Below, in pieces: positions 1,618 to 6,685 of a stretch of 64,000 bases of DNA (the stretch's first letter is position 1; every line of letters begins with the position of its first letter). The stretch lies in NCBI GenBank assembly GCA_963706025.1, contig CAVPLM010000005.1, forward strand, positions 800,001 to 864,000. Reading direction: 5' to 3'. The notes beneath the pieces were generated by a model. It saw nothing but the letters and a program-made list of their open reading frames with translations, was not told where the DNA came from and searched no databases. Source of the DNA: an uncultured Actinomycetes bacterium. GTDB lineage: Bacteria > Actinomycetota > Thermoleophilia > RBG-16-64-13. Position numbers and translations under genes: made by a program.

Positions 1618-2648
1618 TTACATCCCCACGTACTTCGCGTATAGCGCCCTGGCCAGCTTCTCGTCCCGGGTGCCTCTGCACGATGGTGCGGCCGTCGTAG
1701 AAGATCACCAGCTCCTGCTCGCCCACCGAGAAGCGCACCATCTGCTCGCTGCCTTCCACCGGTCCGAGAGCAGCCAGGCGCTCCCCGATCTGGGCCAGCG
1801 GCATGCCCACCGCGGCCGCGTTCCAGATCTGGACCGCGTTCTGCCCGCAGAGACTCGTGACCCGGGTGCGAGGCCGGCCCTGGAGGAATTCGTAGGTCCC
1901 TCCACAGGCAGGGCACTCCTCGTTGGCAAATGGGGCCAAGGGAAGTGATTCGAAGGAGCGCGTCCACACGTCGATCACCACCAGGTCGCGGCTCACCGGG
2001 GCTCGTTGTTCGTCGCCGATCAGGATCTTGAGGGCCTCGGCCGCCTCCAATGACCCGACGATCCAGGGGACGGCGTTCACCACCCCGGCCGTATCGCAGG
2101 TGAGCGTGCCACCGGCCGGAGGAGAGCTCACGATACACCGGAAGCAGGGCCGCCCGCCGGGCAGGAAGGTGGCCGTCATGCCCGAGGACCCGATCGCTCC
2201 CCCGTACACCCAGGGGATCCCGTGCTTCAGAGCCACATCGTTGATGAGGAAACGGGCCTCGAAGTTGTCGAGCCCGTCGACGATGACATCCGCGCCCTCC
2301 ACCAGACTTCTCGGCGTTGGTGCGGCTGAAGTCGGCGACCACTCCCTCCACCTGGACGGCGGAGTTGGCCTCCCGCAGGTGCCGCTCGGCGGCGGTCGCC
2401 TTGGGCAGGTTCTCCTCGATGTCGCGCTCGGTGAAGAGGACTTGGCGCTGCAGGTTGTGGTACTCGATGAAGTCGCGGTCGATAACCCGCACTCGGCCCA
2501 CGCCGGCGCGCACCAGCGCGCTCGAGATGACCGTGCCGAGCGCCCCGCAACCCACCACGACGGCAAAACCGGCGGCCAACTTCCGCTGGCCCTCCGGCCC
2601 GATGCCCGCGAAGATGGTCTGCCGCGAGTATCGGTCTAGTTCCTCCAC
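1618..2648 (-). CDS. ThiF/MoeB-family adenylyltransferase (E1-like), about two frameshifts
   Basis: RYSRQ, VVGCGALG, DRDFIEYHNLQRQ, DGLDNF, CFRC and CPAC zinc motifs, LCGQNAVQ; RBS GGAGGAGG before GTG at 2648; TAA at 1618-1620. Confidence 0.9.
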
Positions 2649-2721
2649 GATCCCTCCTCCACGCGCCTCCGCGTCGCTCCCTCGCACGAACGCACCGCGC
2701 GAAAGATCAAGAAGCTATGTC

Positions 2722-2759
2722 AGGCTTGGGCGGCTCTCACGGAGCCGCATCAAAGGCCT
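2722..2759 (-). promoter_or_regulatory. SECIS-like hairpin directly after an in-frame UGA
   Basis: Minus strand AGGC-CTTTG-AT-GCGGCTC-CGTGA-GAGCCGC-C-CAA-GCCT; apical loop starts 17 nt after the UGA with G in position 2; no U-tract follows. Confidence 0.5.
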
Positions 2760-2866
2760 CAGCCACCACCCCCGCCGCCGCCCCCGCTGCGGGCCCTCCC
2801 CACGAAAACGAGGAGAACCACTATCACAACCACTATCACTATGGCTATGTTGGCCGCTGATTCGAT
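2750..2866 (-). CDS. Unannotated small single-TM peptide (M)ESAANIAIVIVVVIVVLLVFVGRARSGGGGGGGG[UGA]GL; candidate selenopeptide
   Basis: Manual translation: hydrophobic run, basic residues, 8 Gly, UGA at 2759-2761, next UGA at 2750-2752; AAGGGG RBS 6 nt before an ATC codon (non-canonical start or ATG error). Confidence 0.6.
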
Positions 2867-2902
2867 CTCGAGCCCCTTCTAAGAGAACGCACAGGTTCAC
2901 AG

Positions 2903-2925
2903 ATACCCACTGGGGTATGGTACCA
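2903..2925 (-). promoter_or_regulatory. CsoR/RicR-type operator overlapping an extended -10 element
   Basis: ATACCC-ACTG-GGGTAT palindrome at 2903-2918; minus-strand TGgTACCAT at 2925-2917. Confidence 0.6.
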
Positions 2926-2935
2926 CTTCCTGCCG

Positions 2936-3322
2936 CTACCAAATCACCTCGACGTCGTATCGGGCTATCTCCGGATCTGCACTCAGCAACGGTAGCCGTT
3001 CAGCGCGACTCTGCGCAACCAGCAGGCGGTCGAACGGGTCGGAGTGGACCGCGGGTAGCTCGTGGACCGCCAGCGCATGTTGCACCTCGACCGCCAAGGC
3101 ACGGAAGCCGTGCAGCGCCAAGCGCTTGAGAACGTACTCCCGTGGCTGCTCAGGTAGGAGCAAACGACCCTTGCCCGCCTTGAGCGCGATCTCCCACGCA
3201 CTGGCCGCGCTGAACCAGATCTCGTTGTCGCCGTCGGCGATGATCTCCCGCACGCGGTCGGAAAGCTGGGGGTCGCCGGTATTCCACCAGAGGAACGCAT
3301 GAGTGTCGAGGAGAGCTCTCAC
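2936..3322 (-). CDS. vapC: PIN-domain toxin (VapC)
   Basis: LLDTHAFLW, SAASAWEI, H.DPFDRLLVAQ, LLSAD motifs. Confidence 0.93.
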   Translation of the reverse strand: MRALLDTHAFLWWNTGDPQLSDRVREIIADGDNEIWFSAASAWEIALKAGKGRLLLPEQPREYVLKRLALHGFRALAVEVQHALAVHELPAVHSDPFDRLLVAQSRAERLPLLSADPEIARYDVEVIW

Positions 3323-3341: not shown

Positions 3342-3560
3342 CTATTCGAATTCTGGGAGGGGCAGATCGAAATCGGGCATCATCTGGACCTGACCGGCGT
3401 CGTTGCCGGGTATTCTCCGTTGCCTCGTCGTGTCCACGCGACACAGCATCGCGACCGGCTTGCCGGCTCGGGCGATGACGATCCGCTCCCCGGCTTCGAC
3501 CCGGACCAACAGCTTGGAAAAATGCGTCTTGGCCTCATGGACGTTCACCATGGCACACAT
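3342..3560 (-). CDS. Phd/YefM-family antitoxin
   Basis: VNVHEAKTHFSKLL..VEAGERIVIARAGKPVA; directly upstream of PIN gene. Confidence 0.92.
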   Translation of the reverse strand: MCAMVNVHEAKTHFSKLLVRVEAGERIVIARAGKPVAMLCRVDTTRQRRIPGNDAGQVQMMPDFDLPLPEFE

Positions 3561-3776: not shown

Positions 3777-6093
<2,317 letters not shown>

Positions 6094-6222: not shown

Positions 6223-6685
6223 CTATATGGCATAGTTGATCGCTTCGCATTCATTAGCAGCCCGTTCCTGTTCCACCAGGTCCCCAAAAGTCGTGCCGTC
6301 GTACACGTCCATCATGGCGCGGTGGGCCTTGTCCCACATGGGCAGCAGCACACACCCGGCCCGCAGCGGGCAGTCTCGCCCGTTGCCGCATGCATCGGAG
6401 CCGCTCGGCGCAGTCGATCGCCGACATGGGGCCCTGGATCAGCGCGGATCACTTCGCCCACCGCCAGGTCGCGGGGCGACCGGCCAGGCGATAGCCCCCT
6501 TCCTTGCCCCGCACCGACTCGACGATGCCGGCCTGCCGGAGCTGGCCCAGGATGTTCTCCAGGAAACGCACCGGAATGAACTGGGCTGCGGCGATGTTGG
6601 CCGCCTTGACCGGTCCCGAGCCTTCCTTCTTGGCCAATTCGAACACCGCTCGTACCGCGTATTGAGATTTCTGGGAAAGGACCAT
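6223..6685 (-). CDS. Rrf2-family transcriptional regulator (CymR/IscR-like), frameshifted
   Basis: SQKSQYAVRA, FLENILGQLRQAGIVESVRGKEGGYRL; Cys-rich middle; ends INYAI-TAG at 6223. Confidence 0.88.

Follow-up and report, generated by a model that had tools for sequence, protein, structure and literature searches.

A candidate 38-residue membrane selenopeptide with a near-terminal selenocysteine in uncultured Actinomycetota

The 64,000-nucleotide (nt) stretch considered here (the window; contig CAVPLM010000005.1 of an uncultured member of the Thermoleophilia) contains on its minus strand, between positions 2,722 and 2,925, a short reading frame in which a single transmembrane (TM) helix and a run of glycines are followed by two in-frame UGA codons separated by Gly-Leu. 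This arrangement raises the question of whether the first UGA ends a 35-residue peptide or is read as selenocysteine (Sec, U), giving a 38-residue product. An earlier note, made from the letters of the window, proposed the latter and described an extended -10 promoter element, a palindromic operator, a ribosome-binding site and a hairpin resembling a bacterial selenocysteine insertion sequence (SECIS). Direct reading of the window finds every one of these elements on the minus strand where the note had placed it, including an apical loop that starts 17 nt after the first UGA and carries G in its second position. The predicted peptide comprises a 6-residue N-terminus, a hydrophobic helix of about 18 residues, the motif RARS, eight glycines and Sec-Gly-Leu. 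Taken as a whole, a 38-residue membrane selenopeptide is the favoured explanation of the locus, and on comparative grounds we consider it probable.

The comparison rests on 32 distinct homologous loci, drawn from 25 related genomes and 7 metagenome contigs. A DNA search of 60 relatives returned two clear matches and several short ones, all corresponding to the same small gene, while a pattern search of 401 genomes of the class matched 19, compared with 1 for a reversed control pattern; within the family of the source organism the same pattern matched 16 of 60 genomes. Three pattern matches (G158, G320 and G083) showed no open reading frame (ORF) on inspection and were dropped as chance. A protein profile built from 15 members and run in six frames over 61 genomes of the family added ten further members, some with divergent tails; one match, in G024, was discarded on inspection. 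The gene is carried by 26 of the 61 family genomes, counting two imperfect copies, of which that in G001 is frame-broken and that in G164 runs into the end of its contig. Scans with exact patterns recovered 13 loci in metagenomes and 13 in GTDB species representatives, the latter all from metagenome-assembled genomes (MAGs) of Actinomycetota, some labelled Thermoleophilia or Gaiellales. Across 148 genomes from other families of the phylum, a covariance model returned no true member, its matches outside the family reaching just 23–29 bits and none having a TM/Gly ORF. Searched against 1.84 billion representative proteins, the profile gave four matches, of which three are true, all ending at the UGA and called from spurious upstream starts; the fourth (P0001) is low-complexity noise. 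No peptide member matches Pfam or NCBIfam above threshold. The gene most likely represents a conserved, unannotated family within one group of uncultured Actinomycetota, whose members measure 27–51 residues and share a short acidic N-terminus, an Ile/Val/Leu helix of about 18 residues, two to three Arg/Lys, 7–25 mostly Gly residues and the predicted Sec. Metagenome contig L091 carries two paralogous peptide genes at 1220 and 2465 (tails UGLG and UGL), one on either side of a single thiF gene; each has a hairpin of its own.

Over all pairs in the ORF alignment, differences at codon positions 1, 2 and 3 number 5430, 3031 and 7904, respectively. A related strain (run X2) differs from the window at five ORF positions, four of which are synonymous third positions and one an Ile-to-Val exchange (assigned by hand), and Ser at residue 3 is encoded by both TCN and AGY codons across members. 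Within this frame the first UGA is invariant in 32/32 loci, whereas the flanking Gly codons differ at the third base. The next codon (+1) specifies Gly in 31 loci (GGC 24, GGG 4, GGT 2, GGA 1) and the one after it (+2) Leu in 27 (CTC 14, CTG 10, CTT 2, CTA 1), the remaining +2 codons encoding Ile (2 loci), Cys (2) or Ser (1). An in-frame stop lies two codons after the UGA in 21 loci and three codons after it in 11, and is therefore present in all 32; in the other two frames the first stop comes 4–17 codons on, or not at all within the stretch. The resulting tails are UGL, UGLG, UGLR, UGLF, UGLH, UGIF, UGIG, UGC and USSC. The terminal codon itself varies (TAG, 14 loci; TGA, 12; TAA, 6), which marks it as an ordinary stop and removes the earlier suggestion that the second UGA might also be recoded to give a tail UGLUCG. 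Third-position variation together with interchanging stop codons therefore indicates a translated sequence with a real stop, and these substitution patterns make it very likely that the gene is coding and that translation continues past the first UGA.

The hairpin at the UGA is conserved as a structure. In a covariation alignment of 31 sequences over the 7-bp upper stem, 86% of cells are paired and six of the seven pairs show compensatory changes. Specifically, 24 cells carry double changes, compared with 6.7 ± 2.5 in shuffles, and 0 of 500 shuffles reach 24, while sliding the partner by 1–3 columns lowers pairing to 23–50% (maximum 50.5%). The stem also contains 12 G-U or U-G cells, which on the opposite strand are A-C mismatches; because these pairs are possible on one strand only, the hairpin belongs to the minus-strand RNA. 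CGUGN is the apical-loop sequence of 25 loci; three others have CGGGU(A), three GUG and one GGC, and all 32 carry G at loop position 1 or 2. The distance from the UGA to the start of the loop is 17 nt (14 loci), 18 nt (6), 19 nt (10) or 21 nt (2). This 17–21 nt spacing is kept with tails of either two or three codons; being independent of tail length, it shows that the element to which the hairpin is anchored is the UGA, rather than the stop or the following gene. Base changes at the third position of the Gly codon are matched by changes at the paired lower-stem position in several members, one reading GGGCUG...CAGCCC and another GGACUG...CAGUCC. The bacterial SECIS consensus, as given in section 5 of PMC13188914, places the apical loop 16–37 nt from the UGA, with G in its first two positions, frequently with G or U after it, and the hairpin agrees with this model in spacing and loop G at 32/32 loci. 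A 7-bp hairpin with the loop GGAC stands at a like distance after the UGA of the selD gene in the same genome. At the gathering score, Rfam gives 0 matches over the whole window, and consensus scans of 2600–3000 for sigma-70 promoters and for terminators return 0 and 0; no U tract for a terminator lies behind the hairpin.

Were the first UGA a true stop, the locus would encode a 35-residue TM peptide, the hairpin would serve RNA stability, processing or coupling to thiF, and Gly-Leu-stop would be a by-product of the lower stem. UGA is a normal stop in the source genome, gene callers ended three database proteins at the first UGA, and a thiF gene begins 53–167 nt downstream of the peptide UGA in 18 of the 32 loci. 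Moreover, in many members the +1 and +2 codons take part in lower-stem pairing, so that their conservation could be partly structural, a point that counts against read-through. A lower stem alone does not readily explain why the Gly and Leu codons vary only at third positions, with all four synonyms of each occurring, or why interchanging stops close this frame after two or three codons while the other frames remain open for 4 to more than 17. The hairpin, in addition, holds a fixed distance to the UGA and not to thiF or the stop, is present where thiF is absent and lacks a U tract. Termination at the first UGA is for these reasons an unlikely account.

Read-through by itself leaves the identity of the inserted residue to be weighed. 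The source genome, a 3.66-Mb MAG of 30 contigs (92% complete, 7% contaminated), contains the Sec machinery that the earlier note had proposed to look for: selA (506 bits), selB (304 bits), tRNA-Sec (79 bits) and a selD with one in-frame TGA. The product of this selD is itself a selenoprotein (...SHGSG-U-ACKLGP...; G000 C5:742679–743602), encoded about 57 kb before the window. Across the family, selA occurs in 44 of 61 genomes, namely 24 of 26 carriers of the peptide gene versus 20 of 35 non-carriers, counts that come from non-independent relatives and many incomplete genomes and hence serve as supporting evidence, not as a statistical test. In both carriers without selA, the selD gene contains an in-frame TGA, and G140, one of the two, additionally has a tRNA-Sec at 78 bits; evidence for the Sec trait is thus present in 26/26 carrier genomes of the family.

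Decoding of the UGA by a near-cognate tRNA (Trp, Cys or Arg), stimulated by the hairpin, would likewise extend the peptide. Hairpin-stimulated read-through exists in other systems, and the sequence data do not identify the inserted residue. A single base change would turn the codon into one for Trp or Cys, yet UGA is kept in all 32 loci while the neighbouring codons drift; furthermore, the hairpin fits bacterial SECIS spacing and loop, and the Sec trait accompanies the gene in every carrier. Near-cognate decoding therefore appears quite improbable, and it is highly probable that the residue at the UGA is Sec, the choice of Sec over another residue being one that we infer. The earlier proposal of a single-TM peptide ending in GG-U-G-L with a bacterial-type SECIS thus finds strong support in the invariant UGA, the wobble-position changes of its neighbours, the real stop, the covarying stem and the Sec genes. 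The gene would very probably constitute a new family of a known kind, bacterial selenoproteins, with an unusual combination of features.

The frequent proximity of thiF suggests a different role for the short ORF, namely that of a regulatory selenium-sensing leader whose decoding or termination remodels the hairpin and thereby sets the translation of thiF downstream. The ORF stands directly upstream of thiF, and in genus g7 the Shine-Dalgarno (SD) sequence of thiF begins within a few bases downstream of the hairpin's 3' arm (G241, G295 and G300). The helix, the basic anchor and the Gly leash are nevertheless conserved as protein, which a leader does not need; 14 of the 32 loci have no thiF behind the peptide gene, five divergent members sit elsewhere, and nine relatives (L140–L150: G024, G015, G027, G158, G004, G034, G232, G019 and G033) have cysK followed by thiF, with a gap of 0 to about 110 nt and no leader between them. 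A leader function is accordingly very unlikely. Finally, the view that the real gene is the plus-strand ORF at 2717–2860, or that nothing at the locus is coding, is scarcely credible: this ORF does have an ATG start and a third-position GC content about equal to that of the minus frame, and the codon-aligned antisense frame is stop-free in 18 of the 32 loci, but open antisense frames are expected in high-GC DNA, differences number 7904 at minus position 3 against 5430 at position 1 (the plus third position), four of the five strain differences are synonymous in the minus frame only, the SD, start, operator and G-U pairs all belong to the minus strand, and the plus ATG lies outside the conserved block. 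Its interpretation as a His/Tyr metal-binding peptide was rejected as a mirror-frame artefact.

Several observations weigh against the selenopeptide. Folded singly, the 91-nt hairpin region of the window scores z = +1.31 and is equalled or bettered by 182 of 200 shuffles. Neither the six-frame profile search of the 61 family genomes nor the profile search of 1.84 billion representative proteins finds a Cys homologue, and the usual Sec/Cys alignment test is therefore inapplicable; of the homologues that had been anticipated, with Cys or UGA at codon 36 and a covarying hairpin, the UGA form and the hairpin are found in the family and the Cys form is not. A Cys homologue is customary support and not a requirement, and protein libraries poorly represent short ORFs with non-AUG starts. 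In the closest relative (G001) the TM frame is shifted by one base relative to that of the UGA. The slip falls at a run of four G where other members have five, and the operator of this copy is lost as well; the copy reflects either a homopolymer error or decay. A metatranscriptome contig from a related strain (run X15) covers 2808–2991 with nine differences and is strandless, so that it provides no proof of transcription; a second X15 piece, at 2757–2790, was set aside as a 34-nt match to a G-rich contig of another organism. Assembly indels affect genes around the peptide (thiF and metY). Over 2733–3100, an independent short contig from run X1, which may be the source sample, is identical to the window (0 differences, 0 gaps), so that the ATC start, the G runs and the two UGAs do not stem from errors of this assembly. 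As for function, the best-supported role is that of a membrane-tethered selenol induced under thiol, sulfide or copper stress, a proposal drawn from composition and regulon neighbours only.

The start codon is the last of these adverse points, since AUA and AUC are very weak, inefficient start codons in bacteria where they have been measured. The codon at the start position is ATA in 13 loci, ATC in 7, ATG in 4, GTG in 2 and TTG in 2, with one locus ambiguous (ACG or ATC) and three unresolved; AUA or AUC thus stands in 20 of 32 loci, and ATG, GTG or TTG at the same position in 8. In 28 of 32 loci a purine run resembling an SD precedes the proposed start by 5–9 nt, an in-frame stop occurs 1–8 codons upstream of it in several genomes, and the residues directly after it are conserved as protein. 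A non-AUG start thus appears to be a conserved property of the family, most members of which would start at AUA or AUC. The earlier note had regarded the ATC ending at 2864 as its weak point; this concern is resolved by the recurrence of AUA/AUC behind an SD across the loci. Because such starts are very inefficient, low and tightly limited expression is the expected consequence.

Upstream of the start, the palindrome takes the form ATACC(C)-N4-(G)GGTAT across loci and is directly preceded by TGnTAnn, so that the -10 hexamer ends in its first two bases; in most operator-bearing loci TGnTAnnAT directly abuts ATACC in this manner. A similar palindrome precedes the peptide gene in 19 of the 32 loci, and also in G003. 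The source genome holds four perfect and one imperfect operator site, compared with one for a reversed control pattern, and a single gene of the CsoR family (PF02583; G000 C5:530824–531054). A PF02583 gene is present in 18/18 genomes with an operator-bearing peptide gene. Genus g14, by comparison, has PF02583 in 0 of 16 genomes and five complete peptide genes without an operator, directly behind cysK; it appears that repressor and operator either disappeared jointly in this genus or were both never acquired. Because the PF02583 gene tracks the presence of the operator, there is good evidence that the putative repressor uses the palindromic site. Promoter function of the -10 element is presumed from its form, the consensus scan having found no -35/-10 pair.

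The nature of the signal is less clear-cut. The best NCBIfam match of the source-genome repressor is RicR, at 53 bits against a cut-off of 175, and its sequence reads C...R-M-K-E-C, with Arg in place of the Cu(I)-ligand His, so that it lacks the x-C-H-C ligand set. The family analysis in PMC8643695 associates this set with copper sensors and x-C-x-C with persulfide sensors, and CsoR-family members that control sulfur oxidation through TAC/GTA palindromes are described in part of the text of PMC10318464. The His, and with it the x-C-H-C pattern, is retained in 8 of 12 like repressors aligned from relatives. The other operator sites of the source genome adjoin a thioredoxin gene and a type III sulfide:quinone reductase gene (610 bits, NF049943). 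Among six genomes examined, thioredoxin is operator-linked in all six, OsmC in one and copA in one; the copA of the source genome has no site. In G018 (C2:295386; L153), which has one PF02583 gene, an imperfect site, ATACCTCGTGGGGTAT, precedes a gene for a copper P-type ATPase with two HMA domains; this is the sole hint that copper export may fall under the same repressor as well. A conclusion that the repressor is not a copper sensor, initially drawn from the His-to-Arg exchange, was withdrawn in view of the His in 8 of 12 relatives and the G018 copA site. Regulation of the peptide gene by a CsoR-family repressor is thus putative, and the signal may be copper or thiol/sulfide stress. Of the earlier description of the peptide as metal-regulated, the CsoR-family operator that tracks its repressor stands; the metal itself is put in question by the Arg at the ligand position and by source-genome sites that adjoin thioredoxin and sulfide:quinone reductase rather than copA. 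In the source genome, the ORF at L063:141–1373 (minus strand; G000 C3:350005) is uninterrupted and reads H-T-N-C, which we take to be the counterpart of HxxU, so that it would be a putative Cys form.

The peptide gene usually lies in the order (rrf2)-metY-cysK-[peptide]-thiF, followed by a convergent epimerase gene (Table 1), and cysK is found upstream of it in 23 of 32 loci. In the window, thiF is interrupted: the intact G036 orthologue, a match to Pfam ThiF and to NCBIfam PRK12475, aligns to it by tblastn as three segments, each in a different frame. A contig of run X1 that comes from a close strain is one base shorter at 2305 and reads unbroken as ...NAEKLVEGADVIVDG.... Likewise, metY (about 4767–6039, minus strand) falls into at least four pieces, while cysK between metY and thiF is intact. 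The breaks in thiF and metY are probably assembly indel errors rather than signs of pseudogenes. A PIN toxin/antitoxin pair is situated between cysK and the peptide promoter in the window and in G003, forming the upstream border and lying outside the unit; in G001 and in other genera the pair is missing and cysK ends 100–240 nt before the peptide UGA, so the pair looks like a recent insertion. Upstream of metY, an Rrf2-family regulator may control the metY-cysK operon. In the nine relatives without a peptide gene, no ThiS-like gene is visible beside the conserved cysK-thiF pair.

Table 1. Features of the peptide locus and of neighbouring genes in the window (positions in window coordinates)
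Feature	Position	Strand	Description and basis
Extended -10 promoter element, TGGTACCAT	2925–2917	minus	Read from the sequence; last two bases shared with the operator
Palindromic operator, ATACCCCAGTGGGTAT	2918–2903		16-bp perfect palindrome ATACCC-CAGT-GGGTAT of CsoR-family type; direct reading and pattern search
Shine-Dalgarno sequence, GAAGGGG	2879–2873	minus	6 nt upstream of ATC
Predicted selenopeptide coding sequence	2866–2750	minus	38 codons before the stop; ATC start 2866–2864, TGA stop 2752–2750
Predicted ORF product		minus	IESAANIAIVIVVVIVVLLVFVGRARSGGGGGGGG-UGA(2761–2759)-GL-UGA(2752–2750)
Predicted selenopeptide with start residue			(M/I)ESAANIAIVIVVVIVVLLVFVGRARSGGGGGGGG-U-GL; 35 sense codons, UGA, GGC Gly, CTT Leu, TGA
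In-frame UGA, codon 36, predicted to be read as Sec	2761–2759	minus	Invariant in 32/32 loci
SECIS-like stem-loop	2759–2722	minus	Mostly 3' of the stop codon; minimum free energy structures and covariation
Upper stem, GCGGCUC/GAGCCGC	2748–2742 with 2736–2730		Apical loop CGUGA at 2741–2737
Lower stem, AGGC/GCCU	2759–2756 with 2725–2722		Begins inside the first UGA
ThiF/MoeB-family adenylyltransferase gene	1618–2648	minus	GTG start 2648–2646; frame changes near 2306 and 1677
cysK (cysteine synthase A)	3777–4724	minus	Shares 85% identity with the G036 gene (449 bits on TIGR01139)
PIN-type toxin and Phd/YefM-like antitoxin ORFs	2936–3322, 3342–3560	minus	Named by reading the sequences only
Rrf2-family regulator ORF	6449–6685	minus	Upstream of metY; named from sequence only
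Plus-strand ORF, HENEENHYHNHYHYGY	2717–2860	plus	47 amino acids, ATG start, His/Tyr-rich; codon-aligned antisense of the Ile/Val helix codons

Outside this arrangement the context varies. Members of genus g14 have the peptide gene without thiF, and of the five divergent members four lie between uvrB/mgtC and leuS, each with its own operator. Operator, peptide and SECIS thus form a self-contained unit, one that is often found inside a sulfur-amino-acid operon. The idea of ThiF as an obligate partner, acting as an E1 enzyme on the Gly-Gly end, is weakened by the nine cysK-thiF loci without a peptide gene and the 14 peptide loci without thiF; ThiF is a frequent neighbour and, judging from gene order, not a required partner.

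The architecture invites comparison with the eukaryotic proteins SELENOK and SELENOS, whose tails are GGUGR and GGUG. The predicted peptides share with them an N-terminal single TM helix, a Gly-rich disordered cytosolic tail, a Sec 2–3 residues from the C-terminus and a SECIS behind the stop codon. The peptides differ from them in length (27–51 residues versus about 94 and 189) and in the type of SECIS, which is bacterial and lies 17–21 nt from the UGA in the peptides and is a eukaryotic kink-turn in SELENOK and SELENOS. Among the 18 Pfam families touched by 15 members at E ≤ 10, none is that of SELENOK or SELENOS. The likeness to SelK and SelS drawn earlier therefore holds for the architecture of helix, Gly tail and near-terminal Sec, where no Pfam family of that name is matched, and it is best read as convergent architecture, not family membership.

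The only recurrent weak match is PF12669, the FeoB-associated Cys-rich membrane protein, to which 12 of the 15 members show a similarity below the gathering threshold when U is scored as C (best E 0.0014) and the window peptide (member 1) shows none. Proteins of this family are likewise tiny, with an N-terminal TM helix, basic residues and a Gly/Cys-rich tail; they carry several Cys, whereas the peptide has a single Sec and usually no Cys, and no feoB occurs near the peptide loci examined. The likeness may be compositional. A Sec followed by 0–2 residues and a SECIS behind the coding sequence are also features of the 'UXX-star' and 'KCU-star' families and of the Cys-Cys-COOH selenoprotein SaoC, listed in Table 1 of PMC13188914, which offer a bacterial precedent; unlike the peptide, these are soluble thioredoxin-fold or other domains with NCBIfam models, and 0 of 15 members match the NCBIfam 20.0 selenoprotein models at E ≤ 10.

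With the CsoR, RicR and CstR regulons the unit shares a TACCC/GGGTA palindrome overlapping the -10 element and a PF02583 repressor. Small genes under such operators are known in the RicR regulon of M. tuberculosis. The peptide regulon differs in that it is centred on thioredoxin, together with sulfide:quinone reductase and OsmC, and in that the source repressor has C-R-C and not C-H-C.

No such peptide was found in the literature on bacterial selenoproteins and SECIS elements, small membrane selenoproteins, selenocysteine in Thermoleophilia or CstR operators, supplements excluded. Membrane-related terms in the available text of PMC13188914, PMC12013277 and PMC13326102 lead to no description of such a peptide, and a 2026 review that counts 119 selenoprotein families or subfamilies contains neither 'transmembrane' nor 'membrane protein' in the part of its text available (PMC13188914). 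The gene evades gene callers, homology-based selenoprotein finders and family libraries alike, as it has no Cys homologue, no domain and no AUG start and carries its SECIS behind the stop. To our knowledge, nearly every bacterial selenoprotein described to date is a soluble redox domain that was discovered by way of Cys homologues.

The elements of the unit suggest the following mode of action. Transcription would proceed from the extended -10 promoter that overlaps the CsoR-family operator and would be repressed until the repressor leaves the DNA. Translation would begin at a weak non-AUG codon, AUC in the window, and the UGA at codon 36 would be decoded as Sec through a SelB-type stem-loop, with most of the SECIS located behind the true stop, the second UGA. 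According to the positive-inside rule, the Arg residues of the basic anchor (RxR/RR) and the Gly leash would be cytoplasmic, and the product would therefore present a selenol tethered to the inner membrane face on a flexible poly-Gly linker. As part of a small stress regulon with thioredoxin as its constant member, the peptide would most likely act as a selenol, either redox-active or thiophilic in the sense of reacting with persulfide or Cu(I), with thioredoxin recycling it. Because most members lack Cys, an external resolving partner would be needed; candidates are another molecule of the same peptide and the thioredoxin that shares its regulation. In the divergent members, tails ending in UGC and USSC would supply this partner within the peptide.

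In its widest form, this interpretation describes a new class of bacterial micro-selenoproteins: membrane-tethered selenols of 27–51 residues carried on a poly-Gly leash, the smallest ribosomally made selenoproteins known to us and a convergent counterpart of SelK and SelS, whose synthesis would be gated three times, by a CsoR-family repressor, by the conserved AUA/AUC start and by Sec recoding with the SECIS placed in the 3' untranslated region. We hold this wider account to be slightly better than an even prospect. A bolder variant of it would give weight to both products, with the UGA-terminated Gly-Gly form being sulfur-carrier-like beside a ThiF-type enzyme and the Sec-extended form ending in UGL, so that selenium supply would switch the peptide between two chemistries.

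For the biology of these uncultured Actinomycetota and of selenoproteins more generally, the family shows what gene callers, homology finders and family libraries miss. If real, it would offer a minimal system for the action of SelB on a UGA two codons before the stop and for the question of why AUA and AUC starts are conserved. It would equally provide a system for a lone membrane-tethered selenol in copper or sulfide stress, and in this respect it would bear on the chemistry of SelK and SelS.

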